This document shows, piece after piece, positions 12,101 through 47,285 of a stretch of 64,000 nucleotides of DNA. The stretch's first letter is position 1. Every line of letters begins with the position of its first letter. This DNA comes from an uncultured virus (IMG/VR IMGVR_UViG_3300025168_000050). Lineage: Duplodnaviria > Heunggongvirae > Uroviricota > Caudoviricetes. A program made the translations under genes and the position numbers. Below the pieces are notes generated by a model. That model searched no databases. It saw only the letters and a program-made list of their open reading frames with translations, and was not told the DNA's origin. The stretch lies in IMG/VR virus record IMGVR_UViG_3300025168_000050; one strand, written 5' to 3'.

Positions 12101-15100
12101 AGATATAGAAATGCTTTAGGACAGTTTACACAAGGTCCTACGTTAGGATCTTTAGATATGTTACTTAGAAGAGATGAATTATTAGGAATAGAAATAAACG
12201 CAGATGGTAGAACTTTTAATATTAATGGTGAATACTTTAATAATTTAACAGATAATCCATCTGACTCTATTGAATATGATAAAGAAGGGAATGTAGTGTC
12301 AGTTACATTAACTAAATGGAATGGTAAAAAAGTTACATTTACTAGTCCTTTAGTTACTTATGAACTGGCTGATGTTATAGAAACTTTAGAAGCAGTCAAA
12401 AGAACTGCTTTTAATAATTTAATTAACGATGATTTTTTAATCATAGAACAAAATGGTAAAGAGTATATAGTATCTTATGAGCAAGATTTATTTGATGGAG
12501 CTCTTGTTGTTAAAGATATTGATGGAGTTACTATTACAAGTGAGGAAGCAATACCAGTAAGAAGACAAGCGAACATACAATTATCAAACGCTATCCAAGA
12601 AACAATTAATAATATTAAAAACAAATACAATGAAGCTAACTCAACTAAACCGGCTGCTGCCCCTAGAATTACAGAAAACGCTTTCAGCGAAGGACAAGTG
12701 GAGCAGGGTGAAAACTCTCAGAAAGCTGAGGAAAGGATTACCGCTGAACTCAATGCAGAAGGTCAAACGAGCTCAGCCGGGCCAAACGCCTCCCAATCAA
12801 AATTAGATATTACTGAACAAGGAGAATTACTAGATGTCTTTGAACAAGATATAGAAACTAATCAAGATCAAATACAAGAGATAACTAATGAGGGAGAAAT
12901 ACCAACAGTCCAAAATCCAGATGCGGTTATTGCTATCGAAGAGCAAAATGCTATTATCGAAGCTACTGAGGATCCGAAATCAGGAAAAACTGTCGCGGAA
13001 GAAGAGACAACGCTAATAACAATCCCTGGAGCTACTACTAAAACTAAAACAGCATTAGAAAAATCTTATCCTGAATTCTTTCAGCCACAGGTAATAAGTG
13101 TAGTAGGACCAAATGGTAAGTTTACCCAGGCTAAAGATAAGAATGGTATGCTTATGCCAATATGGACTGCACCGGGAAAGAAAGGAGGTTTTTATTTTAA
13201 AGATATTTCAGAACTATCTCCTTCTGAGTTGGAGCAATTAGAAGATCAAAATAATGAAAGAGTGCAGCTTGTGTACTATAATCCACCGATGTTAATAAAT
13301 GAGAAACCTATTTATGAAGGCGGTAGAATAGTAGAACAAAATACAATGGCTCCATGGCAAGGATGGGATTATCAAAAGAAAATGGTTAAAGGACAACAAC
13401 AAGTATTAATGGTTGTACCTGATGCAGTAAAAGAAAAAGATTTATTTGATTTTAGATTATTAAATAGCCCAGAACTAGGGGTAGGCACTAAAGTTCTTTT
13501 ACGAATTGAACCAGAATATAAATACTATCCATCAAGTAATACCGGTGATATGATAGTTACAGTAAGACTAGCATCTGATCCATCAAAAGTTTTATCTGTT
13601 TTAAGTAGAAAGACTGCAAAAAGCCGTGCACTTAGAGCTAAGATAAGTGAGATGGGTAATAAAGATATTAAAGCTGTAATAACTGGGAAGACTCCTGGTT
13701 ATATAATTAACATTAAAAAAGATGGTAAGTCTATACAACGACCTATAGATGGAGATATGATTATAGGTATAGGACAAGACCAAACTGTTAGGTACAACAA
13801 TAGTGATGTAAGTGTTTCTCCTACATCTTACATAGAACAGGGTAGAGTTTATATAGCAGTACCTTCTGCTAATGGAGCGATGATACCTGTAAGAGCTGAA
13901 ACAGCATTACTTTCAGAAAAAGCTATAGATAAAGTATTAGATATTATTACAATGCAAGGAGTAGCTCCTAAAGAAAAAAGAGAGTTAGTAAATAAAATTG
14001 TATATACTCCAGTAGGATCTAGACAAGATCAAGCATTTAAACAGGCTAATAGTAAACGTATATTAGCTATGGATAACTTAGTAGTTAAAATACCTATTCC
14101 TGGAACAGAAAGAGTAATTGGTATTCAGTATAATATGGAAGGACTTGGTGATAAGATGAGAAATAATTTTCAGGATGCTATGAATGGTAAACCTTTCTTG
14201 TTTAAAGAGTATGATAGTCAAGGTAATATAATAACACATGAGTTAAGAAGAAGCGAAGATATTTCTCAGTTTGGACAGATCCCAACAATTATTAGAGATT
14301 ACTTAGCAACAAAAACATTTAATGTACAAAAACATTTAATTAATTCTAAACAAGAATTTTTTAGCCCACTACAAGATGGATCTTTTAAAGATTATAATAC
14401 TTATTTATCTGAGATGGATATAGTTACAACTGATATTCCAGGTGGTACAAGTCAAAGATTTCATCATAGTAAAATTTATGTAGAGGTAGCTGATAAAGTT
14501 AGTGATAATAAAATGCCAGCCTTCTTTAGTGAAGGTACCGAAGTTTTAAATACTACAGATATTATAGTAGAAACTGAACAGGATCTGATTGTAGAAACTA
14601 TGGGCGAGAACGTTGATATACTTGTAGACGAACCTGAAGTACAGAAAGTTTCAGATATATTTGGAGATATATCTCTAACACAACAAACTAGTATAGGTGA
14701 AGAGCTTGAGAGACAAGGAAATTCAATATACTATAAGGACACTGAAGAAGGGGAGGGTGGATTATATAACGAATACACTACAGAAGAAGAAGCTATAAAA
14801 GCTTTTGAAGCTTTAACACAACAAACTGGAGGTACAATGACAGTAACTACTCCTACTACAGCAGAAACTTATATAGACGGTACTGCAGGTAACCAGACTA
14901 TCGTAGAGATTGATCCAAATAAACTTGATGAAGATATAGACATAAAATTTAGAAAGTATGAAGAGTTAGACGCATCTACTCAATTAATAAGTGATGTAGA
15001 AAAACAATGGTTTTTATCTAGGTTTGGAGAAGAGGGTCTTACAGTTATGGATAGATTAAAGTATATGACTTTAAAAAATGGTAAACAAGCTTTTGGTTAT

Positions 15101-18100
15101 TACCAAAGAGGTATGGTTACTGTTGCAGAAATGGCACCTACAGGAACTATGTATTGGGAAGCTTTTCGTCGTATATATGATTTACATTTAACACCAGAAG
15201 AAAAAAGTGCTATAGAGATGGAGGTTATAGAAAAGCTGCAATCAGAATTCCAATCTGATACTATAGCTCCAGAAATAGATATTCAAACTCGTTTAGCTGA
15301 AGAGTTTATGAAGTATAGACTTAATGAAGACGAGTCGGGATTAGGCGCTACAATAAAAAAATTCTTTAAAGAATTACTTTACTACATAAAGAATATGTTA
15401 GGGATGAATTCTGAAATAGAAATTTTATTTAGAGATATTAGTAATAGAGATTTTATACTACCGCAAGAAGATGCAGAATTACAGTCTCAAGTACAGACAC
15501 CTGTACTGCGTGAAAAAACTGGGTTTACAGTAGAACAAGTAGATGAGATTGTAGGAGTTATGAATTACAATTTAAAAAATAAATTACAAGAACAGTATGG
15601 AGATAAGTGGTTAGAGGTTATGAAAGACCCTAAGCTTATGAAGTCTGTTTACACTCAGTTAAGGCAGGGCTTTGAAGAAACTGGAACAAGGCTACAAGCA
15701 TCTGAAAATGAGACACTTAAAAAGATAGGTAATAACTTTGCATTAGTAGCTCAAGAAAATAACTGGAAAGATAAAGTAGATGATTTAAACAATTTAGTTA
15801 GTCCCGGTTTTGAAAGCCTAGCAGTTAAAGCTTTAGATAATCAATTTGGAATAAAGTATAAAATAAAGAGAGACGGTAAGGTTGATACAGAAACTGTACC
15901 TTTTGTAGAAGAAGCAACTACTGAAGTTGAATCTAATGATGATGTATCTTTAGATGAACAAGTAGCCTTGAATGAAGAGCAGAGCAAAGAGCGTATACAC
16001 GGAGTCAATTACTATCATAGTTCAACAAAACCTACACTGTCTAAAGATATTAAAATTGAATTAGGATTTATAAAATCTGAAAAAGGAAAGTTCTTAGGCT
16101 CGAATAGATATTTACCATTTGATGAGGTATATGCATATCTATCTGTAGCGCTAGCTAATACACCCGGGGGTAATGTATTAAATAGACTAGAACAATTAGC
16201 AGAAAAGGGCCACCCAATGGCTAGTGAAGTACTTACAGTGTATGGAAGCTCATCTCCACAATGGCAAAATAAATTTGTTGCGCACTTTAATAAACAAAAT
16301 ATACAGTTTAAAACATTATTATTAGATGATAGTGGAGAAACAAGAACAATTCTTACTAATAGAAATGGATTAAAAAATCAAATTATTAATATATGGAATT
16401 CTAATAGACTTGATAGTGCAGTATTCCAAGAAGAGAATGGAGAAAATGATTTAATAGATTTAACTGAAGTAGACAAAATAAGAACAAGTTATGATACATT
16501 ATTACCTCTTCTAAAAAATCAAGGAGAACTCACAGACCAACAACATAAAGGACAGTACTTAAGAATCATGAAAGATACTTTAGATATGATGGGTATTACT
16601 TTTGATAATGTAGTATGGGAAGGAATATTTAATGATGAAACGATAAAAGCAATAGACCTAGAACAATATATGAGAGGTACTAATTCATTTGGAGCCGGAA
16701 TACTAAGAGCTTTGGAAAGAGGAGTTAGCCCGTATATGGCAGGTAACATGGAATCTGCAGCGCTTAAAAATCTTGCAGAACTAGCAGTAGACTATACAAT
16801 AGATAATTACATTGCATCATTTATGAGCGGTAATAAAAAACCTATCTATGCAATTAATTTAAATACTTATGATTCTAAAACAACATTAGAGTTAAGCTCT
16901 GATGAAACTTATGAGGCTGCTATTTTATCTAGATACAATGATGTATTCTACAGTCCTACAGAAAACCATAGACATTTAATATTAGATTTATTATTTAAGA
17001 ACCCTGAAGTAAGAGCTAACTTTGCTTTAAGTACATTCGATGTAGTTAAAGAAAAGAATACAGCTAGTAGATCTAATGCATATGATACTATGAGTCAGAA
17101 ATTATCTGCAATATCTAGATTTGCAATGTTTTATAATAATGGATTTAAGTATGGAGAGTTTAATACTGGTACTAAAGGTGATAAAACTCAGTGGAAATTC
17201 TTAAGCTTACCAAAGATAGGCCCTGAAAATACTGCATTAGGCTTATGGAAATCAGGTAAACCTGGATTAGATGGATGGTATGAAACTGGAGTACAGCTTT
17301 TAATGCCTGCAGCTTTAGGTGAAATGGCTAGAATAGCTAAGACTAATGACCAAATATCAGGAAATAATCCTATTGCATTATCAGAACAAATACAGAGTGT
17401 ACACTATAAGAAAAACCCTGGAGACCAACAAGGTAACGGTACTAGATTTGTACAATTCCCACAACTAAATAATCCTAAATATAAAATATTTGATGAAGGA
17501 GGGCTTATAAGAAAAGGTGTTAATGCTTCTAGTATGGCTCAGATTGAAGAGCTTAGAATTGGATTAAAGGAAGGGTTATTAAAATACTTACAAGATAATG
17601 TTCAACAAACTATAACAGCATTTGCTGAAGCTGGTGCAATTAATGTAAACGGAACTTCTATAACTAATGAATCATTACCTATATCTGCATTACGTGGAGA
17701 CATAATAAATAATGATATAACTACGGCTATGACTAGATTCGCAGTTAATGATTTAGTATATAAAACTTATATGCAAACTACATTTGGACCTGATTTAGCA
17801 TACTACAAAACTGATGACACTGGTAATCCTATTATAGAAGCAGGAAAAAGAGCTTATCAATCAATTACTCCTGGGCTAGAACCGGTATGGAATGAGCAAA
17901 AACAATTTGGACTTAAGCCTAAGTTCTCTCACACTATTTTAAAAGATATATTTAAAGATGGTGATACAGCAAGGTTCCAAAAAATATTAGAAAATGCAGG
18001 TGTAGAAACAAAAGAAGCAAAAAGAATTGCAACAGCTTATACGAAAATTAATAAGACTGATGCACAAGGGTTTACTACATTAGAATTCCATAAACATTTA

Positions 18101-21100
18101 ATGGAATCAGAAGGTACCTGGACACAGGAGCATGAGAATGCTTATGATAAATACTGGACAAAAGGATTGATGGGAGACATTGCCTCTAGAAAGCTATTAT
18201 TAAATCCTAGGAAAACATATTACTTTGGTGAAAGGCTTGTAACAGATTCTCAAGGAAACAATACAGTAACATTTGAGCAAATAAAGCATTCAACTATCCC
18301 ACTAATAAGAGAATTTACTGAAATGTTTAAAGGTACTGAAGATCAAGTATCTCTAAATAATTTAAGACAACGTATGGAGGGTACCGGTAGATACAAAGGT
18401 TTAGAAACTATTGATATGGCTAACTTTGAGTCTGCTATTAAAGTAGGAGCATCTGGTATAGAGAACATAGATAATCTACAAGGATTAAATGTAGAGATAC
18501 TAGAGACTAAGAATCTAAGATCTCCTCAAGTAATAGAAACAAAAACAAAAGCACCATTAGACGGAACACAGATGGCAAAACTAATACTATCAAATATTTT
18601 AGATAGTTATAATTATAATGTATTTGGAGGTAAGTATAATGGTAAGCAAATAAAAGATCTATATAATGAAATATATGCAGAGCGTATAAAAAGATCTCAT
18701 GATTCATTAACTAAAGAATTAGGATGGGATACATATCAAAATACTCTTAATCTTACAGATCTAAAAGCTAGAGATAAAGCTCAATTAGATTTCTTATTAA
18801 AAGTTAAAGATGTAGCTATAAATAGTTTAGAAGAAAGGGACTTACCAGACAACTACTACTTAGCGATGAAAATAGAAAAGCTAGTAGATGATGTAAATGC
18901 TTACGGATTCCAAGCGCCTTTATCATTCCCGCCGTTTGCAAAAAGATTTGAGAGTATCTTATTATCATTGTTTAAAAATAAAGTACTTAAACAAAGATTT
19001 AATGGTATGAGTGTTGTTCAGGTAGCAGAGTTTGGTTTTGAACTAGATACGCAACTTGAAATTAAAGCTCATAAAAATGGTGGAGTATATGCTGAAGTAG
19101 CATTACCTTATGAATTAGCAGCTAAACTTGGATTAAAACCAGGAGATACTGTAGACTCTAATGTAGACCCACAACTATTTGAAATTATGGGATATAGAAT
19201 TCCTACTCAAGGTAAAAACTCTATGTTATCTTTGAAGATTACAAAAATTTTACCAGAAAATATGGGGGGTGTAATTATATTACCAGCTGAGATAACTACA
19301 ATGATGGGTAGTGACTTTGATATTGATAAAATGTATCTTATGTTCCCAGAAATATCTAAAGCTAAAACAAAAATTAATGCATTTAATGCAGAGATATATT
19401 CAGGAAAGAAAGAGTTTGATGGAGTATCTGATAAGGCATTAACAAATGCATTGTTTGATATAAGACAGTCTATTATAACATCTAAGAACCATGTTAAGGA
19501 GTTAATGGATCCGCTAGATAGTAATACATATACATTAAAACTAGCAGAGTATGAGAAATTAGGAATTGTACCTAACTTATCTGATCTTAATATTAACTCT
19601 ACAGCTGCTGACATGTACTTAGAAAAGATTAACAAAGATGCGGCTTTACTGATTGGATTATTTTCATTACATTCTACAGGTCACGCAGTAGCACAAGACA
19701 TGGATGTAAAATTAAAAGATGATTTTGCTGTTAATATTCAGGCTGAGGGGTCGAAGTCACATACAGACTTAAGCAGAATATTAGGATTTAACGGACAGTT
19801 TATATCAAGTTATATTTCTGAAAATCAAAACGAAGCATTAGACAATGCTAAGTATCAAAGAATTGGTAGAGCAGGAGTATCAGTGTATAACAATGGAATT
19901 GTAGCACTATTAAACAGAATTGGATTTAGTAATGAAGGAGTAGCATTAGATTTTATTAATCAACCTATACTAAGAGAGTTTTTTGCAACAAGAAATTTAG
20001 AAGAAGAAAAGACAGACTATGCTATTGCAAAAGACTTAGCTAAAAAGTATGAGATGTTAGATACATTTGAGCTATTAAGAGAACAAACAATACATACTCC
20101 TAGCGCAGCTTCTTTAAAGAAAGATTTAGGAGGAACTCTAGCAGATAAAGAATTAGCTAAAAGACAGACGCAGATTTTATCTGATATGTTAAAATATTTA
20201 CAAGCAGGTAGAGATTTAGCGAAGTTTAATATGATAGTAAGTCCAGAAACACTGAAGAACTTTAGCAGACTTAGTTTTTTAGAGCAATTTAATAATAATG
20301 TAGCGTATTTAAATAGTGAAGTTTCATCTATTAATATTGGAAACACTACAGGTAGAATTCAAGCATATATAAACTATGGAATTAAAGCAGCGGAATCATT
20401 TACAGGACAATTTGTTCCGTTTAATGGCCCGGGCTTTAGCTTATTAAAAACAAATATAGCACAGTTAACTGGACAAAGAGATACTATCTTGAGCGCAGAC
20501 CTATCTGATGTAATAAATAGCTTTGGATTATTTTATTCATTAACTAAACGTACATCACCATTTGGGGATCTATTATATAATAAAAGAGATGCATTAGAAA
20601 AGAAACTATTTAATAAGCCTACATCTCTTCTTAATGATGTAATTAGAATCAAGAAACAATATAATTTACAAAACGACCCTTTCTTAGGTATGCTATATAA
20701 TTCTGCAGAGAATACAGGAAGAACACAATTTTTACAAACTATAGCATTTAACAATACTACTAAACTAAGTCCAGCACAAAAAAATAAAATAACAGACAGA
20801 TGGTCTGAACTTCTTATGGACCCGAGAGCAGAAGTAAGAAACTTAGCTCAAGATTTAGTTAGGTACTCTGTACTTACATCAGGATTTATGTTAGGACCTA
20901 ATTCATTTGTAGACTTAGTTCCAATGTCATACTGGAAGTCTTCAGGATTAACAGATTTCTTTAGAAAAGAAGAGAGAGGTATGGGATATGCTAATTATTT
21001 TGATGAAGGCGCAGCAGAACAGATTATAAGAAATATGTTTACAGATCGTAACCTCTTAAAAACTGTAGATAGTAAGAACTTAGTAACTACTGATCCTATG

Positions 21101-24100
21101 AGAAAGACACTAAGTATGAGTCAGAACGAATACTTTTTACATGAAGATGCAAATAGTAATTTAGTAGTACCGTCAGTAGATCCATTAGTATCTGAGTATG
21201 TAAAATATTTTAAATCTTTTAATGAAGGAAAGTTTAGATTATATAAGCATGTAAGAGATTCTAAAACAGGAGCTATATATGAAGAAATACAACCTTTAGG
21301 GGAAAGATTTAAATATGTAGAAATGGCAGGAGAAACTTTAATGTTAGAAAGTATACACCCATTAAACAAAGTAGTTAACCCAGCTCCTTCAAAACAACTT
21401 AATCCTACAATCACTGAAATTACAGAAGAACAAAACCCTGGAAATACTCAAAGTATCAATGATGTTATGCCACAGTTAACTCCTATAGTTAAAGAGAGTG
21501 TATTAGCAGATTTAGATGCAAGATTAGAGACTTGGTTATTGGAACACTTTAATATACCAGTTGAAAAGTATGATAACCTTAAACAAAAATTAGGTATTGA
21601 TGCTATTGGAGCAGCAGACATGGCAATGAAGACTGTTCAGATACAAAATGATCGAGACAGATATACATTACCTGAAGAAGCAGGACACTTCTATATAGAA
21701 ATGATGGACCAGTCTCCTCTTAAAACAAGATTATTTGAGCTAGTAGGCCAAACAAAACTTTATCAAGATGTATTAAAAGAATATAAAGATATATATACTA
21801 CAAACGAGCAGTTCATTAACGAAGCTGCCGGGAAAGTTCTTAGTAGATATATTGTAGGACAGGAATTAGGAATAGAACCTGAGTTTGTTCGTGGATCTGG
21901 TCTAATGAATACACTTAGAAACTTATGGGAATCTATTAAACGTTTCTTTAGAGGAGGTAACACAGCTGCAAATGATTTATCTGCACAATTATCTGAAGTA
22001 CTAGGACCTGCTGCAGTAGCAATTACATCTGGAGTTAATCCGGGGGGACTTAGTATAGAGAATATTGGTGTAAATAAATATTATGCATTGCAACCTCAGA
22101 ACATTACAGGATTAGCAGCGCAGTTACTTAAAAGAGGATCCGCACTAGCAGCTTCTAAAATTCCATACTTAAAAAACTTTACGCAGAGAGATGCTATGAA
22201 TCAGCTGATTGGGGAAAGTAATATGATTAGTGCACCAACTGAGCAAGACAACTACTATGTACAAGATGGGGTAAAAATGAATAGAGTAAGTAGGTTACTT
22301 GAGATATTCCAGGATCCATTTAATCAACAGGATATGGCAGAAAAAGTAGCTGCAACTAATAGAGGAGAAGGCAATGTGTTTAACACGGCAGATAAAGTAC
22401 AGAAGTTGTGGGATTTCTTACGAGATGATTTAGGAACAGGTTTACATAATATGATGGAGCAGATTGTACAACAACAAACAGACGATGTTATCTTATCTTC
22501 CGTTCCACAAGAGCAAAGAAAATCTTTTGAAAAAGCATTACCTTCATTAAAAGCCTGGGTAGCTGGTAAGATAGACAGTGGAAGTACATTATACTCTGAA
22601 GTTAAAATAGCAGATAAATCTGATTTATTAGCAGGGTCTGTAGATATTATAGAAATAACACCGACAGGTAGAAAAATTATACATGACTTTAAAACTAAAA
22701 TGCGCGGTAAGTTTGGAAATATAGAACAATCTTTACCTTCATTTAAAGGCGCACTTGCGTCTGTACCTAACACTTTACTTAATAAGTATAGATTACAGCT
22801 ATCTCTTTATAAACATATTATAGAAGAAAAAGGAATAACAATAGATGAATTAAATATAGTACCACTAGAAGCGGATGTAACTATGAACTCAGAAGGGACT
22901 ATATCATTCTCTAATGTAGGTCTTGCTACATCTAATACTCCGGTAATAAATAAACTAAATAATTTAAAGCCTATATCAAAGAAAGTAATTAAAGGCGCTA
23001 TTAGTTATATATCTCCTGAATTTGATGCATCTAATAAAAAGATCGAAAAAGAACAAGATACTGTGTTACGTGTATTTGAAAATGCTAAAAATCAAATACA
23101 AAGAAAGATTGATTTCTATAAAAAATCTAATAACAAAGAATACTCAGATCAATTACAAGAGTTGTATAATGAATTAGATGAGATAGGAGAAAAAGAAGGA
23201 CTAATTGTATTTACTAAACGTGCAGTGAGAGATATTAACTCTGCGCATGCAAGATTAAAAGAATTAGTAAGAAATAATGCAGTTACTCCAAAGAATTTAA
23301 ATCAAATATATCAGTTTGTAAAATCTTATGATAGTTTAGAAGAGATCACATTAATGGCTCCTATGTTAGTAGAGTCTGGTTTTGAAAATATGATTGAAAA
23401 ATATGTAATGCCTGCTATAGCAAAGAAAAATCTAGTTTATGAAGAGTATAAAGCTCTTGGAAGACCTTTGATAGCAGAAGCTTTAGCTAAATTGAGTACA
23501 AATCCTAATGTAACTGTTGATAAACTAGAAGCAGAACTTTTAACTTCAGGTAGAGATATATCTTTTATGGCTAGATGGTTAGATTCTTTAGGAGACTCTA
23601 CTCAAACTGAATTAGCTACAATGGATAAACTTATTGTATTACAAAGAGGGAAAGTAAACGAGGCTACATATAATCTAATGTACGGAACTAAAACTACAAA
23701 AAGTCTTATGAAACTTATGAAAGATCTTGAAAAGTTTCAATTTGATAATGGTGTAAATCTCTACAATAACAGAGCAGTTTATGACTTTATGTTAGAAGTA
23801 GGTACTGACGGAAACATGACTGGAAAAGTTGTTACAACACAAGACTCTAGATGGCTTGAATTAAAACAAGAATTTATGGAGACGGAAAACTTTACTAATA
23901 GTAAAGAAGATTGGGCATCATTCTATAAAGAGAATAAAGCAGAAGATTATAGAAGTCAGAAGTTTAAAGATATAGCAAACATGGCTAAAGAAGATCCTAG
24001 AAGAATGTTTTATGAATTCTATGCGGAGAATTACATGTATGCACAAAAACTTTTACCAACTAAATATAGAAAAGGAGCGCAATTACCGTCATTAAGAGCA

Positions 24101-25903
24101 ACAGCTGCAGAGAAAGTACTAGAGAAAAAAGGATCTTTCCCTTCAAGACTAAAAGATGCAGCTAAAGAGATGTGGACTGAAACATTTACAAAACATGAAG
24201 ATAATGTTTCTTATGGAGAATATGTAGACTCTGCAGGTAACCCATTAGATTTTGTACCGGTACATTACTCAAGAGCTATAGGTAATCAGGAAGGGCAATT
24301 AAGCCCAGCAGATTTATCATACGATTTAGGATCAGGATTAAAAATGTTCTTTACTATGGCAAATAACTTTAAAGAAATGTCAGAAATACTTGATGTACTT
24401 GAAGTCGGTAAAGAATTAATAAAAACAAGAAGAGTTACTAAACTATCATCTGGAATGGCTAAGAAAGATCAGATAGGAGAAGTAGTTACTACAGCAGGTG
24501 TAGATTCTAGAGCTTATGCTAGATTAAGTGATTACTTTGATATGCAAATATACGGTAAGCGTAAAAAAGATATGGGTGCAGTAACAATTATGGGTAAAGA
24601 GATAGATATAGCACAATCATTAGATGCATTTTTACAAGCAGGTAGTTTCCGTGTCTTGGCGCTGAATAAGCACGCCGGTTTATCTAATGCAACGTTCGGG
24701 GAAATGATGAGTTTTATTGAAGGGTATGCTAATCAGCATTACGGTGTAGGAAATTACGCAAGAGCTACTGCGATTTATGCAGCAGGTATAGCAGGATTAA
24801 CTAACGATGTAATGAAAAGACAGCCTTCTTCTAAACTAGGGATGATAAATGAACTGTATGATGTACAACAACATTTTGATGAATATGGAAATAGACTAGA
24901 GCATAGAAAGATAGGTTTAAGAGCTAGTGGTTCAGCATTATTCTTTATGATGTCTCTTGGAGAGCATGTAATACAAACTCAAATGGCTGTAGCTTCAATG
25001 TTAAATACTAAATTTAAAACTAGTAAAGGAGAAGTTAATTTATATGATGCATACTCAGTAGTAGATGGACGTCTTGAATTAGATCCTGAAGTAGAGGCAC
25101 AGTTTAGTTCAGAAGATAGAGTATTATTTGCTGAGAAAAATGCAGCAGCTTATCAACGTATCCACGGTATATATAATACTAAAGACAGAAATGCTTTACA
25201 GCAATATGCAATGGGAAGATGGGCAATGCAATTCCGTAAATGGTTAAGGCCTGGTATGCTTCGTAGATTCCAAGGTGCTGAAAAATTATTTTACAATAAA
25301 GATTCTAAATTTAAAGGACCTGAATACAATGAAAGACTACAATCATTTGTTGAAGGTAATTATGTTACAGCTCTTAAATTTGTAAACAGAATAAAAAAAG
25401 AAGTATTTGCTATGAGATTCCAAACTTTACCACAGCAGTGGGAAAAACTAGAAAAGTTTGAGCAGGAAAATATTAGAAGAGCTTTAGGTGAAAGTGCGGG
25501 ATATATGATACTAGTATTATTAGGAAGCGCAGTCGGATTTGGTTACGATCCAGATGATGAAGAGGGATCAGATAACATGACTGCACTAGATTGGCAAATG
25601 CTTTATAATGTAAAAAGAGTACAAGCTGAGATGGGATTCTATACTACTTCATCATTCTTTGAGATCTTAAGAACTCCTGCAGCAAACATGACTACTATTG
25701 AAGCATATTATAAATTTATAGAGCAACTTATGAGTGATGGTTCTTCATTAATGTTTGGAGGAGACTATGACAGGTATAAGAGAGATGCAGGAAGGTATAA
25801 GAAAGATGATCCAAAAATATTAAAACGATTCCATAATATATTACCAGGTAAAGAGTTATTTACAAAGCCGGAAGATAAACTTTCATGGTTTGATTTAAAA
25901 TAA
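9119..25903 (+). CDS. Giant virion-associated DNA-dependent RNA polymerase polyprotein (5594 aa)
   Basis: Catalytic 'GSDFDIDK' (DFDID at 19313-19327) is preceded by 'YRIPTQ', and 'TDAQG' and 'DNAK' blocks are present, as in crAss-type two-barrel RNAPs. Also carries zincin-like segments and a PD-(D/E)XK domain. Confidence 0.9.
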   Translation: MGEPKKGSSLDIAKMNTTLNPITALPEDQSGPQLQSDGGPVQYPVDIENSLDVIRYTQANSNQRFQTPTVFATDYNQMPDVNWDIENVHNINKRRASEQTGLSQLGGFLNQAIIGEVVGGTLEGVGALGDAVGGLFMGQMPWESDFQNWLTDFGGDIREATKEYTPIYQQNPGKGWDPSDSGWWASNGVSVASTLSLLLPAIGVARGASYAGKGMRYLAGAGKSSRSAMVANASRKLQNAMTAGRATNFVRNSMAMGISMRHMENFREAGETWDHSFQKNLDFLQDPKNFENFINSSNGEAILKQLGITTDDPYVKDKVANHVAGQAAANSYITNWSNVGFDILQAGLWFGPMKLGTRPGKNIFGRHSTKVTKANNATLKAPKVPKTRVGKAYNYIKPIIPPALWAYSEGIEEQINFMSMQEGIRHGDIMMGNTGYENREFMSGSSWVNRMNDYASRGDFWAATAMGTIGGGIFSGIATLKNRKAQAALDQARLKEIGGRADLIQKSLEKRRKAIENGDVQGAREQDEIMALQLSLNSAQAGNMDQLEEMMNDPAFVEMLQETGQSESELATRKADLINILRTTEKKFNTYRNRATSSKWGAGVAGALTELDMSVTMYDKLIKDIDTQIEQNINDDIYNVEQYNIGPNTKQRHQLQMQKRALQDQLSKFQLAQERAEDASEDTTASKEEKEKSKALAENFNQYINNLQDQIARNETEENVLKKSSQETYEDTALREENEFLDKVDKGSLTTLANKKQLFTWHRDAAWNRLQDLLKEENPYYENESEVSALNDIAVVGKERIKEEAENNGIIDDFKEAVKNNPEMTEEQVDEFFAQYPDNVKIQEFYNEFIQSFKQAKEEQAVQQAYEENKSNLNALANQTRQEVRDEIDRKIEQLKQELFNPKLSRRDVSKRIKMEQEWRETQGRATAYLYGDAQSINMPISELFDEVTQTVGVVWGDKVGSIYRDTETNELIFRDGTTLEEYIVDESPSAHNSRYRNALGQFTQGPTLGSLDMLLRRDELLGIEINADGRTFNINGEYFNNLTDNPSDSIEYDKEGNVVSVTLTKWNGKKVTFTSPLVTYELADVIETLEAVKRTAFNNLINDDFLIIEQNGKEYIVSYEQDLFDGALVVKDIDGVTITSEEAIPVRRQANIQLSNAIQETINNIKNKYNEANSTKPAAAPRITENAFSEGQVEQGENSQKAEERITAELNAEGQTSSAGPNASQSKLDITEQGELLDVFEQDIETNQDQIQEITNEGEIPTVQNPDAVIAIEEQNAIIEATEDPKSGKTVAEEETTLITIPGATTKTKTALEKSYPEFFQPQVISVVGPNGKFTQAKDKNGMLMPIWTAPGKKGGFYFKDISELSPSELEQLEDQNNERVQLVYYNPPMLINEKPIYEGGRIVEQNTMAPWQGWDYQKKMVKGQQQVLMVVPDAVKEKDLFDFRLLNSPELGVGTKVLLRIEPEYKYYPSSNTGDMIVTVRLASDPSKVLSVLSRKTAKSRALRAKISEMGNKDIKAVITGKTPGYIINIKKDGKSIQRPIDGDMIIGIGQDQTVRYNNSDVSVSPTSYIEQGRVYIAVPSANGAMIPVRAETALLSEKAIDKVLDIITMQGVAPKEKRELVNKIVYTPVGSRQDQAFKQANSKRILAMDNLVVKIPIPGTERVIGIQYNMEGLGDKMRNNFQDAMNGKPFLFKEYDSQGNIITHELRRSEDISQFGQIPTIIRDYLATKTFNVQKHLINSKQEFFSPLQDGSFKDYNTYLSEMDIVTTDIPGGTSQRFHHSKIYVEVADKVSDNKMPAFFSEGTEVLNTTDIIVETEQDLIVETMGENVDILVDEPEVQKVSDIFGDISLTQQTSIGEELERQGNSIYYKDTEEGEGGLYNEYTTEEEAIKAFEALTQQTGGTMTVTTPTTAETYIDGTAGNQTIVEIDPNKLDEDIDIKFRKYEELDASTQLISDVEKQWFLSRFGEEGLTVMDRLKYMTLKNGKQAFGYYQRGMVTVAEMAPTGTMYWEAFRRIYDLHLTPEEKSAIEMEVIEKLQSEFQSDTIAPEIDIQTRLAEEFMKYRLNEDESGLGATIKKFFKELLYYIKNMLGMNSEIEILFRDISNRDFILPQEDAELQSQVQTPVLREKTGFTVEQVDEIVGVMNYNLKNKLQEQYGDKWLEVMKDPKLMKSVYTQLRQGFEETGTRLQASENETLKKIGNNFALVAQENNWKDKVDDLNNLVSPGFESLAVKALDNQFGIKYKIKRDGKVDTETVPFVEEATTEVESNDDVSLDEQVALNEEQSKERIHGVNYYHSSTKPTLSKDIKIELGFIKSEKGKFLGSNRYLPFDEVYAYLSVALANTPGGNVLNRLEQLAEKGHPMASEVLTVYGSSSPQWQNKFVAHFNKQNIQFKTLLLDDSGETRTILTNRNGLKNQIINIWNSNRLDSAVFQEENGENDLIDLTEVDKIRTSYDTLLPLLKNQGELTDQQHKGQYLRIMKDTLDMMGITFDNVVWEGIFNDETIKAIDLEQYMRGTNSFGAGILRALERGVSPYMAGNMESAALKNLAELAVDYTIDNYIASFMSGNKKPIYAINLNTYDSKTTLELSSDETYEAAILSRYNDVFYSPTENHRHLILDLLFKNPEVRANFALSTFDVVKEKNTASRSNAYDTMSQKLSAISRFAMFYNNGFKYGEFNTGTKGDKTQWKFLSLPKIGPENTALGLWKSGKPGLDGWYETGVQLLMPAALGEMARIAKTNDQISGNNPIALSEQIQSVHYKKNPGDQQGNGTRFVQFPQLNNPKYKIFDEGGLIRKGVNASSMAQIEELRIGLKEGLLKYLQDNVQQTITAFAEAGAINVNGTSITNESLPISALRGDIINNDITTAMTRFAVNDLVYKTYMQTTFGPDLAYYKTDDTGNPIIEAGKRAYQSITPGLEPVWNEQKQFGLKPKFSHTILKDIFKDGDTARFQKILENAGVETKEAKRIATAYTKINKTDAQGFTTLEFHKHLMESEGTWTQEHENAYDKYWTKGLMGDIASRKLLLNPRKTYYFGERLVTDSQGNNTVTFEQIKHSTIPLIREFTEMFKGTEDQVSLNNLRQRMEGTGRYKGLETIDMANFESAIKVGASGIENIDNLQGLNVEILETKNLRSPQVIETKTKAPLDGTQMAKLILSNILDSYNYNVFGGKYNGKQIKDLYNEIYAERIKRSHDSLTKELGWDTYQNTLNLTDLKARDKAQLDFLLKVKDVAINSLEERDLPDNYYLAMKIEKLVDDVNAYGFQAPLSFPPFAKRFESILLSLFKNKVLKQRFNGMSVVQVAEFGFELDTQLEIKAHKNGGVYAEVALPYELAAKLGLKPGDTVDSNVDPQLFEIMGYRIPTQGKNSMLSLKITKILPENMGGVIILPAEITTMMGSDFDIDKMYLMFPEISKAKTKINAFNAEIYSGKKEFDGVSDKALTNALFDIRQSIITSKNHVKELMDPLDSNTYTLKLAEYEKLGIVPNLSDLNINSTAADMYLEKINKDAALLIGLFSLHSTGHAVAQDMDVKLKDDFAVNIQAEGSKSHTDLSRILGFNGQFISSYISENQNEALDNAKYQRIGRAGVSVYNNGIVALLNRIGFSNEGVALDFINQPILREFFATRNLEEEKTDYAIAKDLAKKYEMLDTFELLREQTIHTPSAASLKKDLGGTLADKELAKRQTQILSDMLKYLQAGRDLAKFNMIVSPETLKNFSRLSFLEQFNNNVAYLNSEVSSINIGNTTGRIQAYINYGIKAAESFTGQFVPFNGPGFSLLKTNIAQLTGQRDTILSADLSDVINSFGLFYSLTKRTSPFGDLLYNKRDALEKKLFNKPTSLLNDVIRIKKQYNLQNDPFLGMLYNSAENTGRTQFLQTIAFNNTTKLSPAQKNKITDRWSELLMDPRAEVRNLAQDLVRYSVLTSGFMLGPNSFVDLVPMSYWKSSGLTDFFRKEERGMGYANYFDEGAAEQIIRNMFTDRNLLKTVDSKNLVTTDPMRKTLSMSQNEYFLHEDANSNLVVPSVDPLVSEYVKYFKSFNEGKFRLYKHVRDSKTGAIYEEIQPLGERFKYVEMAGETLMLESIHPLNKVVNPAPSKQLNPTITEITEEQNPGNTQSINDVMPQLTPIVKESVLADLDARLETWLLEHFNIPVEKYDNLKQKLGIDAIGAADMAMKTVQIQNDRDRYTLPEEAGHFYIEMMDQSPLKTRLFELVGQTKLYQDVLKEYKDIYTTNEQFINEAAGKVLSRYIVGQELGIEPEFVRGSGLMNTLRNLWESIKRFFRGGNTAANDLSAQLSEVLGPAAVAITSGVNPGGLSIENIGVNKYYALQPQNITGLAAQLLKRGSALAASKIPYLKNFTQRDAMNQLIGESNMISAPTEQDNYYVQDGVKMNRVSRLLEIFQDPFNQQDMAEKVAATNRGEGNVFNTADKVQKLWDFLRDDLGTGLHNMMEQIVQQQTDDVILSSVPQEQRKSFEKALPSLKAWVAGKIDSGSTLYSEVKIADKSDLLAGSVDIIEITPTGRKIIHDFKTKMRGKFGNIEQSLPSFKGALASVPNTLLNKYRLQLSLYKHIIEEKGITIDELNIVPLEADVTMNSEGTISFSNVGLATSNTPVINKLNNLKPISKKVIKGAISYISPEFDASNKKIEKEQDTVLRVFENAKNQIQRKIDFYKKSNNKEYSDQLQELYNELDEIGEKEGLIVFTKRAVRDINSAHARLKELVRNNAVTPKNLNQIYQFVKSYDSLEEITLMAPMLVESGFENMIEKYVMPAIAKKNLVYEEYKALGRPLIAEALAKLSTNPNVTVDKLEAELLTSGRDISFMARWLDSLGDSTQTELATMDKLIVLQRGKVNEATYNLMYGTKTTKSLMKLMKDLEKFQFDNGVNLYNNRAVYDFMLEVGTDGNMTGKVVTTQDSRWLELKQEFMETENFTNSKEDWASFYKENKAEDYRSQKFKDIANMAKEDPRRMFYEFYAENYMYAQKLLPTKYRKGAQLPSLRATAAEKVLEKKGSFPSRLKDAAKEMWTETFTKHEDNVSYGEYVDSAGNPLDFVPVHYSRAIGNQEGQLSPADLSYDLGSGLKMFFTMANNFKEMSEILDVLEVGKELIKTRRVTKLSSGMAKKDQIGEVVTTAGVDSRAYARLSDYFDMQIYGKRKKDMGAVTIMGKEIDIAQSLDAFLQAGSFRVLALNKHAGLSNATFGEMMSFIEGYANQHYGVGNYARATAIYAAGIAGLTNDVMKRQPSSKLGMINELYDVQQHFDEYGNRLEHRKIGLRASGSALFFMMSLGEHVIQTQMAVASMLNTKFKTSKGEVNLYDAYSVVDGRLELDPEVEAQFSSEDRVLFAEKNAAAYQRIHGIYNTKDRNALQQYAMGRWAMQFRKWLRPGMLRRFQGAEKLFYNKDSKFKGPEYNERLQSFVEGNYVTALKFVNRIKKEVFAMRFQTLPQQWEKLEKFEQENIRRALGESAGYMILVLLGSAVGFGYDPDDEEGSDNMTALDWQMLYNVKRVQAEMGFYTTSSFFEILRTPAANMTTIEAYYKFIEQLMSDGSSLMFGGDYDRYKRDAGRYKKDDPKILKRFHNILPGKELFTKPEDKLSWFDLK

Positions 25904-43260: not shown

Positions 43261-43294
43261 TTTTATTCTTTTTTATATGTTATTAAATGTATTA

Positions 43295-43355
43295 TAGAGT
43301 AGCTAGGAGTCGAACCTAAAAACAGAATTCTGTTTCGAGTACCATGCATACTCTC
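43295..43355 (-). ncRNA. Truncated tRNA-like element in nrdJ leader
   Basis: Minus strand: AGAGTA...TACTCT acceptor-like stem, T-arm TAGG-TTCGACT-CCTA, central hairpin GAAACAG-AATT-CTGTTTT. No anticodon loop and no proper D-stem. Confidence 0.5.
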
Positions 43356-43435
43356 TTTTAAAGCACATTCCAACATTGCCTACTCTACAAATACATTGTA
43401 TTCTTAAGTAGTGTTGAGTTAATTTAAAAGGGTAG

Positions 43436-44954: not shown

Positions 44955-45000
44955 AAAAAAAAGGAAGAACAAGAGAGTGCATCACACACTCTCAAGTTCA
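44955..45000 (-). terminator. Intrinsic terminator
   Basis: GAGAGTG...CACTCTC hairpin followed by TTGTTCTTCCTTTTTTTT on the minus strand, after the 240-aa ORF. Confidence 0.6.
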
Positions 45001-45014
45001 TATTCCAGCCAGTT

Positions 45015-45737
45015 TTATGATAATGAAGGAAGAGCACTAATTATCTCTCCTGTTTCAGTATTTACAGTGACATCTGCGTCTGATTGATAAAGATTATCAG
45101 CAGAAACATATTCATCTATTTCAGTATGTGACCAACCATTTTCGTTAGTATACACACCATTTTCATCTCTTGTTGCAGCTTTCAATAATGTTCTACTGAA
45201 CACATGTTCTACTGCATTTGTTTCAGGGTTCATACCTTTGATAAATCTCCCTGTTGAACCTGCTTTTTTACCTGCTTTCTCAATGTTACTAAGTTCCCAA
45301 GCAGTAGCATTTGATTCAAATACCTCGTTGATACATACTCTGAAATACATTTGTAGTCCATTATGTTGTACACTTGGACTAAGCTCTCCAATGAAGATAC
45401 CAGGTCCAGCAGAACTAGAAGTTCTGATAGATAATTGTGCTATTGCGTTCTTATCTATTTGAGGGAAATATTGAGACACCTCAGCCTCTCCGAAGTTTAA
45501 CCAGTGTCTTCTACAACCACTTGATGGTGTAAATGCAGGGTTAGAAGCTTGAGCCATTTGTACAAAATTTGTACCTGACGCTCTTGTTACTTTCGTATCA
45601 GTTAGTTTGTGTCCAAACTCTACTTGAAATGTTTTAGCACCTGTCTTCTTGTCGTTGTTAATACGAGTTAAAGTGATAGCTGCACATTCATTATCAGGCA
45701 TACTTGCTACGAATTGATTTACTCTATTTTGATCCAT
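45015..45737 (-). CDS. Hypothetical (probably early) protein
   Basis: 240-aa ORF with highly-expressed-type codon bias. No recognised motif. Confidence 0.7.
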   Translation of the reverse strand: MDQNRVNQFVASMPDNECAAITLTRINNDKKTGAKTFQVEFGHKLTDTKVTRASGTNFVQMAQASNPAFTPSSGCRRHWLNFGEAEVSQYFPQIDKNAIAQLSIRTSSSAGPGIFIGELSPSVQHNGLQMYFRVCINEVFESNATAWELSNIEKAGKKAGSTGRFIKGMNPETNAVEHVFSRTLLKAATRDENGVYTNENGWSHTEIDEYVSADNLYQSDADVTVNTETGEIISALPSLS

Positions 45738-46230
45738 TGTTTCTTTTGTACGGTTTACACATTGTACTCTTCGGTTTTTGGTGTTATCACAACTTTAGCT
45801 ATATATATAGTAATATACTGTAATAACAATGATTAAAATGTTAGTTAAAATGGTAGGTGTATGAGTATACAGTGTCTAAGAGTATACTTATTTTCGTTAA
45901 ATCGTTAAGTTCTTTCAGTGTTGAGTTTGTTTACTACACGAATAGGAATATAATTCGTAGTACAGATAGACGAATGATACACATACATACCACTCTTTAG
46001 TAAAGGTCATAGATTTAAATAAAAAAATAAAGACAGTAAACTCTTACATTTACTCAGAGGTCGTAATACTGTCCTTATTGTGTTTTACACACACACTCAA
46101 CACTAGGTTTTTATAAAAGAATAGTCCATCTTACGAGTTCTTATGGGTTACGGACTTACTCCGGATTACTGAACTATTCTTTATGATTAAACTAGCTTAC
46201 CAAGATTAAGTAAAGGTCTTGGATCTAAAT

Positions 46231-46290
46231 AAAAAAAAGAAACCACTCATCCAAATTTAGCCGTAGTTGCTTAGTCAAGGGATGAGTGGT
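46231..46290 (-). terminator. Intrinsic terminator-like stem-loop
   Basis: Perfect 11-bp inverted repeat ACCACTCATCC(46242-46252)/GGATGAGTGGT(46280-46290), followed by TTCTTTTTTTT on the minus strand. Confidence 0.6.
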
Positions 46291-46357
46291 GTATCATACT
46301 GATTAAAGAAGTGTATGATGACTTCTGAACTCTATCTGGCTGGATAGTTAGTTCCCA

Positions 46358-46645
46358 CTACTTCTTCGTAGAAACGTTCCTGAATACGTAGCCTATTCGG
46401 CTAATCATATCCTGAACTTGTTGCATTCTCTCTGGAGTATAGTTAATCATCCATGACTGCGTGTCATCGATAATCTCCCCTGTCTCAAGGTTGAATGCTA
46501 CATTCTTCTCCTGACGACAGAAGAATATCGGCTGGTTGTCTCTCTTACGTGTGTAAGGGCCATCGCAACTGATATACTCTATCCTCTTAACTGTAGAGTC
46601 TACAGTAGGAGCTGAAGTAGTGATAGGTTGAATTGTATCTACCAT
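46358..46645 (-). CDS. Hypothetical protein, first gene of minus-strand block (probable start 46645, 95 aa)
   Basis: The ORF track gives 46744, but that extension crosses G6 tracts and the 22-bp motif. The in-frame ATG at 46645 lies 10 nt downstream of the motif. Confidence 0.55.
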   Translation of the reverse strand: MVDTIQPITTSAPTVDSTVKRIEYISCDGPYTRKRDNQPIFFCRQEKNVAFNLETGEIIDDTQSWMINYTPERMQQVQDMISRIGYVFRNVSTKK

Positions 46646-46796
46646 ATCTATCTTCAGAAAAGGTGATAGATCTAAATCAATTTCGACGTGGGGGGATTCA
46701 ATCTTCTTTGTTGACCGGGGGGAGTTTTCAATAATGGTCTGCATCTCTAAATACCTCTTAAATAATATTTTTTATAAAAAATTATATTTTATATAT

Positions 46797-46814
46797 TATT
46801 TTTGTATATCTTTG
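46797..46814 (+). promoter_or_regulatory. Tandem TAnnTTTG -7 elements driving plus-strand block
   Basis: TATTTTTG (46797-46804) and TATCTTTG (46807-46814) upstream of ATG 46865. Confidence 0.65.
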
Positions 46815-46864
46815 CATCTGAATTAAGAGGTATAGTGTTATAACTATAGCTAAAATATAAATGA

Positions 46865-47224
46865 ATGGCACATGAAGATAAAAAAATAGAAGAAGCAATA
46901 CCGCATGCATGTAATAACTTTTCGGTATCATCTTCTGTAGTGGATAGAACCATAGCAAAGGAATATGTAGATAAACACGGTTTAACAATACACTACCATA
47001 AAGAATTAAGAGACGGAACTCCAAGAAGAGTATGGGATATACATGACCCTTCTGGGCATATGGCTGGTAGATTATATACAGCAGTTGCAGGATATGGTCT
47101 TAAAAATAGAGAACCGTGGAAAGATGAATTTGATTTCGCGGAATTTTTTGTAAACAGAGATAGGTGGGATGATAAGGAGCTTATAGCACCAGATACTAAA
47201 CACTTCAATAATATCGCGGGTTAG
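46865..47224 (+). CDS. Hypothetical protein
   Basis: 119-aa ORF whose last 10 nt overlap the tRNA 5' end. Confidence 0.6.
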   Translation: MAHEDKKIEEAIPHACNNFSVSSSVVDRTIAKEYVDKHGLTIHYHKELRDGTPRRVWDIHDPSGHMAGRLYTAVAGYGLKNREPWKDEFDFAEFFVNRDRWDDKELIAPDTKHFNNIAG

Positions 47225-47285
47225 AGTAATGGTAACTCGACGGTTTCATTAGCCGAAGCTGAAGGTTCGATTCCTTCACCCGCTA
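47215..47285 (+). tRNA. tRNA-Met (CAT), initiator-like
   Basis: Acceptor CGCGGGT/ACCCGCT (C1:T72 mismatch), D-arm GAGT-AATGGTA-ACTC, anticodon arm CGGT-TTCATTA-GCCG, T-arm GAAGG-TTCGATT-CCTTC. No encoded CCA. Confidence 0.85.

Follow-up and report, generated by a model that had tools for sequence, protein, structure and literature searches.

What is encoded in the gene-free interval at positions 46021-46208 of a 64,000-nucleotide (nt) stretch of an uncultured phage genome (IMG/VR record IMGVR_UViG_3300025168_000050; the whole stretch is called the window below)? The original prediction, made from the letters alone, was that of a stand-alone early small RNA (sRNA) whose repeated GUAA loops would act as a multivalent protein sponge or an anti-defence decoy. 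Comparison with related phages on balance favours a small-RNA gene of the immediate-early region, consisting of a conserved core and an exchangeable middle. The sponge does not emerge as a conserved function.

Few known viruses are as abundant as the crAss-like phages. To our knowledge, neither the start signal of their injected polymerase nor the role of their abundant early noncoding RNAs has been described, and this compact locus makes both accessible to comparison. Three of its features are worth following: a candidate immediate-early promoter motif, a conserved pair of complementary sequences (box and anti-box), and a hairpin module held in common with a distant phage. Its value is moderate, as phage and host are uncultured and small early phage RNAs are of a known kind.

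The window covers 64 kb of an 86-kb phage genome (record G001; G+C about 33%) and encodes a terminase, a portal, a major head protein, a RIIA-like protein, a DNA polymerase, helicases and a ribonucleotide reductase. Part of a single open reading frame (ORF) of 5594 amino acids (aa) at 9119-25903 on the plus strand matches PDB 6VR4 (E 3.2e-24), which is the virion RNA polymerase gp66 of Cellulophaga phage phi14:2. Because of this match, the phage is classified from its sequence as an uncultured marine crAss-like phage, and its host is probably a marine flavobacterium. Genes run leftward at 26262-46744 (-) and rightward from 46865 (+), with the noncoding unit at the head of the leftward block.

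A noncoding unit with strand-specific structure

The interval had been said to hold no ORF beyond about eight codons, and there is indeed no ORF of at least 25 aa between 46010 and 46358. An 8-codon ORF (MDYSFIKT) exists, and within 45991-46240 the longest start-initiated ORFs reach 17 codons (minus strand) and 12 codons (plus strand). The two 13-bp stems proposed to work on the minus strand were likewise recovered. Both 46116-46128/46170-46182 and 46026-46038/46067-46079 form 13 of 13 pairs on that strand, including one G-U pair each, versus 12 of 13 on the plus strand, where the G-U becomes A-C. Folding of the entire unit gave -45.3 kcal/mol for the minus strand (z -2.59, 5/200 shuffles equally good) versus -33.3 kcal/mol for the plus strand (z -0.69, 43/200 shuffles equally good), so this check also came out in favor of the minus strand.

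Read along the minus strand, the unit opens with a conserved 5' segment at 46208-46183 (UAAUCUUGGUAAGCUAG...), followed by a 76-nt inserted hairpin module at 46182-46107 that combines a 13-bp stem (46182-46170/46128-46116) with a sub-hairpin, CGGA-GUAAG-UCCG. Next come the conserved box AGUGUUGAGU at 46104-46095, which is kept in all related versions of the unit (with 9 nt retained in L024 and L025), a small (GU)n hairpin at 46093-46079, and a terminator hairpin at 46079-46026. The last three elements are referred to as the 3' module. The hairpin has the features of an intrinsic terminator, with a 13-bp outer stem enclosing a 4-bp one (CUCU/AGAG), a loop of 11 nt and, directly behind, U7 at 46027-46021; this predicted terminator is kept in all versions, but is missed by a simple terminator scanner because its loop exceeds 8 nt. 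Just four of the eight GUAA copies and one of the two 13-bp stems fall within the conserved part.

The unit is absent from the Rfam catalogue, although small early phage RNAs in general are already known. A search of the whole window against Rfam 15 at gathering thresholds returned only a tRNA-Met at 47215-47285. When E values up to 10 were admitted for 45650-46900, four weak matches of 14.8-18 bits appeared (gathering thresholds 35-50), none of them over the minus strand of the unit. The same search of five related loci found tRNAs only; the Infernal check that had been suggested thus provided no family for the unit in the window or in these relatives.

Conservation among relatives

Relatives were recovered by means of the 240-aa protein encoded downstream, the terminator loop and the motif described below. 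They comprise nine contigs and seven distinct versions: L001, L002 and L022 (with identical units), L021, L026, L024, L025, L007, which is cut by the end of its contig, and L003 (L023 being the same contig). The 240-aa proteins of these contigs share 63-78% identity with that of the window. In all nine the unit is present and ORF-less, and the motif at its head and the hairpin with U-tract at its end are kept. The 3' module is 95-96% identical to that of L001, L021, L026 and L003, and 78% identical to that of L025, while the flanking genes are 61-81% identical to their relatives at the DNA level.

Several changes preserve pairing. A 27-nt loop of the terminator is invariant in five of seven sequences, and one pair of the hairpin is G-U in three sequences and A-U in four. 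In L024 and L025 the arms read GACAAGU/ACUUGUC versus GACAGU/ACUGUC in the window, each being longer by one matched base; as MAFFT misaligned these longer arms and scored them as broken, the arms were read directly. The long forms of the unit also have a 5' domain whose basal stem, read from the folds, is formed by the 5' sequence UUGGNAGG. This stem covaries: GGUAGG:CUUACC in L021, GGUAA:UUACC in L026 and GGGAGG:CCUCCC in L003.

The unit measures 114 nt in L001, L002 and L022, 114 nt in L024 and L025, 176 nt in L021, 188 nt in the window, 218 nt in L026 and 258 nt in L003. These differences reside in a hypervariable middle that ranges from no insert to about 145 extra nt of unrelated sequence. 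Natural variation already separates a conserved core, in which the box and the terminator loop stand out, from a middle that appears dispensable. A stand-alone sRNA is thus the part of the original prediction that gained from comparison: the ORF-less state in nine of nine contigs, a 3' module more conserved than the neighboring genes, and pairs that are strand-specific or compensatory all speak for such an RNA. Of 23 sequencing runs listed for the region, 20 contain part of 45000-47000; in the three recorded as RNA the share of sampled words is just 0.06-0.10, and no weight is given to these shares.

Three cassettes and a candidate early promoter

The motif copies and the U-tract that had been described as flanking the unit are both in place. 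The motif is 21 nt long (minus-strand consensus ATTTARATCYAWNACCTTTWC) and occurs three times in the window, always on the minus strand. Copy P1 (46677-46657, ATTTAGATCTATCACCTTTTC) is followed after 11 nt by a conserved internal ATG at 46645-46643. Copy P2 (46230-46210, ATTTAGATCCAAGACCTTTAC) is the candidate promoter of the noncoding unit and is letter-identical across all nine related contigs, L007 included. Copy P3 (46020-46000, ATTTAAATCTATGACCTTTAC) heads the next unit and is identical in the six genomes compared. A pattern search of the 86-kb record G001 yielded the same three copies and no further ones. Across six genomes 20 instances were counted, all on one strand and none on the opposite strand. 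A degenerate pattern of the motif found nine loci in IMG/VR, five of which were chance matches without the surrounding context.

The three copies mark out a row of cassettes: P1, a gene and a terminator; P2, the noncoding unit and its terminator; and P3, a 261-nt leader and the 240-aa gene. Both P2 and P3 stand directly behind a long hairpin and U-run, and P1 has no preceding hairpin. The terminator of the first gene lies at 46290-46231 (-), with arms 46290-46281/46253-46244 and a U-run at 46238-46231; by eye, both arms are altered yet complementary among the versions found in the window and L001, in L003 and L026, and in L024 and L025.

The surroundings of P1 are themselves constrained. About 107 nt including P1 (46646-46744, formally the first 33 codons of a 128-aa ORF) are 89-99% identical to relatives, compared with only 61-65% for the remainder of that gene. 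Given this contrast, the P1 stretch is probably regulatory DNA and the gene probably starts at the ATG at 46645 (95 aa, 46645-46358), which would make P1 probably the first early promoter. Besides P1, the stretch 46646-46744 (-) carries two C6 runs.

Three copies of a phage-specific signal thus stand exactly where an immediate-early promoter is expected, and we infer that the motif is an early promoter that the injected virion RNA polymerase may recognize. A promoter scan reported no sigma-70-like site over P2 or P3. A host-type promoter was also considered and set aside, as inspection by eye found no Bacteroidota-type TAnnTTTG common to the three copies.

The junction of hairpin, U-run and motif recurs among close relatives. 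The window phage has three motif copies, while L001 and L003 have four and thus extra cassettes, so that unit content varies between genomes. With the motif taken as a candidate promoter, this resembles the arrangement of the PeSL cassettes of T4-type phages, in which, as outlined in two accounts of these arrays (PMC2839356, PMC4122927), repeated junctions of a terminator hairpin and an early promoter bound small units that relatives gain, lose and swap, as with the extra cassettes of L001 and L003. The differences are that T4-type phages belong to another phage order with another motif and probably another polymerase, and that what the cassette carries here is a noncoding RNA possessed by all relatives, not a small gene that varies. 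In L003, an additional ORF-poor cassette of about 215 nt (2203-2438) lies upstream of the noncoding unit, between a variant motif copy and a U9 run. It has no match in Rfam and may represent a second small RNA.

The PeSL likeness raises the question of whether the RNA matters at all. The locus could be a cassette for the control of transcription, with the RNA as its by-product and the conserved parts serving as DNA or nascent-RNA signals, such as a terminator or attenuator before P3 or the needs of P2 and P3 themselves. One variant would have P2 and P3 both feeding the 240-aa gene, with the hairpin and U7 as a leaky gate. It accords with this proposal that conservation peaks across the terminator, P3 and the leader, that the short forms contain little beyond the 5' end, the box and the terminator, with unrelated sequence of widely varying length in the middle of the others, and that the same junction occurs at every cassette border, including those of the extra cassettes in L001 and L003, much like the promoter-terminator junctions described for the PeSL arrays (PMC2839356, PMC4122927). 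A plain terminator, however, needs neither a 27-nt loop that is invariant in five of seven sequences nor a conserved 10-mer upstream of it. The covarying 5' stem of the long forms suggests selection on a released RNA, and P2 is invariant even though P3, about 110-260 nt downstream, could serve the gene alone. For these reasons the by-product explanation is considered rather unlikely, and a small-RNA gene is retained as the better account of the unit.

Box, anti-box and the structured leader

If the unit produces an sRNA, its box suggests a target. The 10-mer ACTCAACACT and its complement occur five times in the window, at 7318, 37963, 43410, 45917 and 46095, versus 0.11 expected, and none of 100 shuffles reaches five; the 8-nt core occurs six times versus 1.11 expected. 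G002, a relative with about 78% protein identity, has the 10-mer at four of these five positions. On the minus strand, the box form AGUGUUGAGU is found in the noncoding RNA just before its terminator (46104-46095) and again at 37972-37963, within the last codons of a helicase gene and 3 nt before a long terminator hairpin, where the DNA is invariant between the window phage and G002. The anti-box form ACUCAACACU is found at 45926-45917, in a 32-nt apical loop of the leader of the 240-aa gene, and at 43419-43410, where complementarity extends to 11 nt (to 43409). About 25 nt separate this second anti-box (43419-43409) from a conserved tRNA-like cloverleaf downstream of it, which is followed by the genes for ribonucleotide reductase, polymerase and helicase. 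The box form therefore precedes terminators and the anti-box form is situated in 5' leaders.

The leader of the 240-aa gene spans 261 nt (45998-45738, -) and contains a long hairpin at about 45993-45850. It is 89-95% identical to relatives versus 69-81% for the gene. An RNAalifold analysis of seven leader sequences gave 53 pairs, five of which show two-sided changes, one pair passing through an AU/GU/GC series. As judged from this alignment, the leader is a conserved structured RNA element in its own right. The predicted probability that its anti-box is unpaired is 0.62-0.64. An invariant 20-mer of the leader, when searched against IMG/VR, retrieved only three contigs that were already known. 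RNAduplex predictions for the sRNA against the leader without regard to accessibility were also tried; they returned full-length duplexes that 17/60 and 23/60 shuffles matched, and were discarded as a test.

From these elements a mechanism may be proposed. Each of the three cassettes would open with the 21-nt motif as an early promoter, possibly for the injected virion RNA polymerase, and the first two would close with a long hairpin and U-run as putative terminators. The conserved 5' end of the RNA could close a 5' stem-loop domain, and its middle would be free to vary and to accept foreign hairpins, the GUAA-rich 13-bp hairpin being one. The conserved 3' module would present the box AGUGUUGAGU, the small GU hairpin and a terminator hairpin with its conserved loop. 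The box could then pair with the ACUCAACACU that the structured leader of the next gene displays in its apical loop, and the second ACUCAACACU copy, upstream of the tRNA-like element and the ribonucleotide-reductase/replication operon, would offer a further site. Such pairing might tune the hand-over from early to middle expression, acting in trans or, when transcription reads through the terminator, in cis. The layout has what looks like the anatomy of a loop-directed antisense pair, and base pairing between box and anti-box is put forward, tentatively, as the most likely mode of action.

Several observations weigh against this account. So variable a middle is what one would expect of an RNA that itself does little. 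The authors of the phi14:2 preprint found no motif common to the regions upstream of early transcripts (bioRxiv 10.1101/2020.03.07.982082). The predicted accessibility of the box is only moderate, at 0.38 in the window phage and 0.54-0.73 in relatives. Box and target are invariant in all genomes, so there is no covariation between them, and by our own estimate a 10-nt match between an RNA of 114-188 nt and a leader of 260 nt would arise by chance in a few percent of cases. Since the anti-box lies about 180 nt upstream of the start codon, simple occlusion of the ribosome site cannot be the mechanism. Finally, the 10-mer could equally be a DNA site used by a DNA-binding protein.

This last point can be developed into an explanation at the level of DNA, in which the motif would be part of a polymerase-specific termination signal, or the inverted 10-mers on either side of P3 would be operators for a phage regulator or parts of a replication origin where the two gene blocks diverge. 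Termination signals of this kind have a precedent in phage P23-45, where the virion RNA polymerase terminators near the genome end share a 26-nt motif according to one preprint (bioRxiv 10.1101/2022.12.01.518664), and two of the three motif copies here directly follow a hairpin and U-run. The position of P1 argues against it: P1 has no hairpin or U-run before it and is located 11 nt before a conserved ATG, which fits a promoter and not a terminator. With respect to an origin or operators, AGTGTTGAGT about 85 nt upstream and ACTCAACACT about 73 nt downstream of P3 are in inverted orientation and the cumulative GC skew of the window turns near 46 kb. However, the spacing of the 10-mers is not fixed (about 178 bp versus about 161 bp in L024 and L025), the turn in skew falls where the genes change direction, and DNA sites need neither G-U pairs that form on one strand only nor compensatory changes. 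A purely DNA-level element is consequently improbable.

Taking the small-RNA reading further, one may speculate on a wider RNA-RNA code, in which boxes placed before terminators (one in the sRNA, another closing the replication operon at its 3' end) would pair with anti-boxes in 5' leaders. The sRNA would be a diffusible box that times or stabilizes middle transcripts, and its middle a landing pad for hairpins exchanged among distant phages, the GUAA hairpin for example, that might serve as decoys for host factors. We regard this extension as unlikely to be correct in full.

The variable middle and an exchanged hairpin

In L001, L002 and L022 the middle of the unit consists only of a 9-nt loop between two CUAGs, and in L024 and L025 of a different small hairpin. 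In L007 the site is empty, with ...TTTAATCAT joined directly to CTAGTGTTGAG where the window has 76 extra nt (46107-46182); the empty site common to L001, L002, L022 and L007 reads ...TTTAATMAT/CTAGTG..., the slash marking the junction. The 76-nt insert, with four of the eight GUAA copies, is found among close relatives in the window phage only, the middles of L021, L026, L003, L024 and L025 being unrelated or different. The hairpin that L003 and L026 carry is shorter, related in its loop (...ACCAUAAGAACUC...AUG) but built on a different stem, free of GUAA and weakly folded (z -0.49). In comparison, the inserted hairpin folds at -18.7 kcal/mol (z -2.43).

A search of IMG/VR with the hairpin-loop pattern returned 15 loci, 12 of which were chance matches. 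The same hairpin was identified in a distant phage represented by two contigs that are 99.95% identical (G003 and G004), with 91.3% identity over 69 nt (E 1e-21). The 13-bp stem is identical to that of the window and there are again four GUAAs, while the sub-hairpin covaries, being CGGA:UCCG in the window and CGGU:ACCG in G003 and G004. The DNA polymerases of the two phages are 45% identical and their best coding DNA match is 72.5%. In the distant phage it is flanked by two small genes of the early/replication arm and accompanied by neither a motif copy nor a U-run. It would thus appear that distant phages have exchanged the GUAA-rich hairpin as a self-contained structured module, which is placed outside the conserved core of the RNA. 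That a structured hairpin of 76 nt can move between phages with polymerases this dissimilar is of interest in its own right.

Two further observations concern this module. In the G003 locus (L047, 709-790) it lies between a 70-aa ORF and a 202-aa gene, and a possible mini-ORF of 24 codons starts inside the 3' arm of the hairpin, of which the window keeps 8 codons. A conserved small peptide in the middle of the unit was also considered: a conserved AUG after CCAUAAGAACUC opens 8 codons in the window, 19 in L003, 23 in L026 and 24 in G003. This was rejected because, by eye, the sequences are unrelated after the first residues.

GUAA across relatives

In the unit of the window phage, GUAA is indeed repeated more often than in shuffled controls. 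Eight copies occur in the 188 nt of 46021-46208 (-), compared with 2.76 +/- 1.42 in dinucleotide shuffles; eight were reached by 5/5000 and 3/2000 shuffles, and none of 3191 sliding 188-nt windows along the minus strand of the 64 kb exceeds this number, the maximum for the plus strand being five. The copies had been described as lying in the interiors of the stems, and seven of the eight are unpaired in the minimum-energy fold.

The same cannot be said of the homologs, in which the array is not kept. The L001 type has four GUAA in 114 nt, reached by 26-29/2000 dinucleotide shuffles, and L024 and L025 also have four in 114 nt, reached by 49-56/2000. The three other long forms are not enriched, with three in 176 nt in L021 (415/2000), four in 218 nt in L026 (246/2000) and five in 258 nt in L003 (151/2000), so that enrichment appears mild in the short forms and absent in these. 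Roughly homologous copies can be followed at three places, namely in the 5' GGUAAG or GAGUAAG, at the terminator base, and in GAGUAAAU within the loop. Neither of the first two survives in every genome; the window phage itself has lost the one at the terminator base, and L024 and L025 have lost one of the two GUAAs of the terminator loop. From these comparisons the GUAA array seems real in the window phage and weak to absent as a trait of the family.

Thus, it is most improbable that the unit as a whole displays GUAA in multiple copies to titrate an RNA-binding protein or to decoy a defence nuclease in the manner of CsrB or RsmZ. These RNAs have in common with the unit a short motif that is present many times and mostly unpaired, in a small RNA ending in a terminator. 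They differ in that their motif is GGA and not GUAA, that copy number is not conserved here, and that half of the copies are in a lineage-specific insert. The many unpaired copies above chance in the window, the mild enrichment of the short forms and the recurrence of the hairpin in a distant phage with four GUAAs despite an altered sub-hairpin would all be expected of such a sponge. On the other side, the insert is carried in this form by none of the seven related versions, the related hairpins of L003 and L026 are without GUAA, and copies in the terminator loop and at its base have been lost as described above. No Pfam or PHROG family was recognized among the nearby proteins as a GUAA-binding partner, and we know of no protein that acts as one. 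A partner that reads GUAA in the inserted hairpin module alone is possible.

It is also very hard to credit that the unit is a decayed gene cassette, with the promoter and terminator of a lost small gene and leftovers between them: by eye, neighboring cassettes of relatives do contain small genes (an ORF of about 85 codons in L001, L002 and L022 and a CxxC...CxxC mini-ORF in L003, L024 and L025) and the inserted hairpin does bring a mini-ORF start, but none of nine related contigs has a gene in this slot although the flanking genes have diverged to 61-81%, the mini-peptides are unlike in length and sequence, and P2, the box and the terminator loop are strongly constrained.

Comparison with known systems

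The small-RNA gene may be placed beside several phage systems. The c4 antisense RNA of phages P1 and P7 targets short sites, complementary to itself, further down the mRNA of the operon that encodes it. In common with c4, the unit would specify a small structured RNA that is just upstream of its presumed target, points in the same direction and has about 10 nt of complementarity to a downstream leader. The c4 RNA differs in being processed from the operon transcript, whereas the RNA described here has its own motif and terminator and a target far from the ribosome site.

Promoters of coliphage N4 are short DNA hairpins with a 5-7-bp stem and a 3-nt loop. By eye, no hairpin with a 3-nt loop is common to the three motif copies; P1 and P2 can form stems with loops of 11-12 nt, and P3 lacks a comparable inverted repeat. 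In N4, the early promoters P1-P3 (not to be confused with the motif copies) are read by an injected virion RNA polymerase (PMC4496689). The two phages are alike in having three clustered phage-specific signals at the start of the early genes of a polymerase-injecting phage, and differ in the fold class of the polymerase, T7-like in N4 versus two-barrel here.

The nearest parallel by phage type is phi14:2. The phi14:2 preprint describes two abundant noncoding RNAs of undetermined function from long intergenic regions of the early operon, which are transcribed from the earliest time point at levels above most genes (Drobysheva et al., bioRxiv 10.1101/2020.03.07.982082). Both phages are marine and crAss-like, with an injected virion RNA polymerase and gene-free stretches in the early operon, but the regions of phi14:2 are about 0.7 and 1 kb and so far longer than the unit. 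A blastn search of window positions 45700-46400 against the phage collection revealed no sequence similarity to these regions. In phi14:2 (L020, NC_021806), ARAGORN calls a transfer-messenger RNA (tmRNA) at 4031-4500 with the tag GSSVQKLAMVA*, in a gene-free stretch before g006. This stretch appears to be one of the two early long noncoding RNA regions, and Rfam makes no call there at gathering thresholds. In view of the tmRNA call, that RNA would differ in kind from the unit described here.

Neighboring genes and other features

No cultured relative was matched in the phage collection, either by blastn with 45700-46400 or by tblastn with the 240-aa protein. Searches found no Pfam or PHROG family for the neighboring 240-aa and 128-aa proteins, and an Atlas search on neighbor-protein function gave no usable match. 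An AlphaFold model of a neighbor protein had a mean predicted local distance difference test (pLDDT) score of 49.8, which was too low to search with.

The 5594-aa ORF is much longer than the 2194-residue 6VR4 chain of phi14:2 gp66. Its crAss-type virion RNA polymerase region aligns with residues 774-1406 of 6VR4, and it also has an exonuclease-like stretch.

The ribonucleotide reductase gene is closely preceded by the cloverleaf-like element at 43285-43378 (-), which hardly differs in G002 and was called by neither ARAGORN nor Rfam. The element combines an acceptor-like stem with a T-loop (UUCGACU), a long variable arm and an anticodon-like arm whose loop is unusual.

A 25-nt inverted repeat with 80% complementarity is found at 45794-45818 and 46830-46854 (...TATAGCTAAA). 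The 240-aa gene and the first rightward gene are each preceded by this sequence at a comparable short distance, and it may be a shared second promoter or operator.

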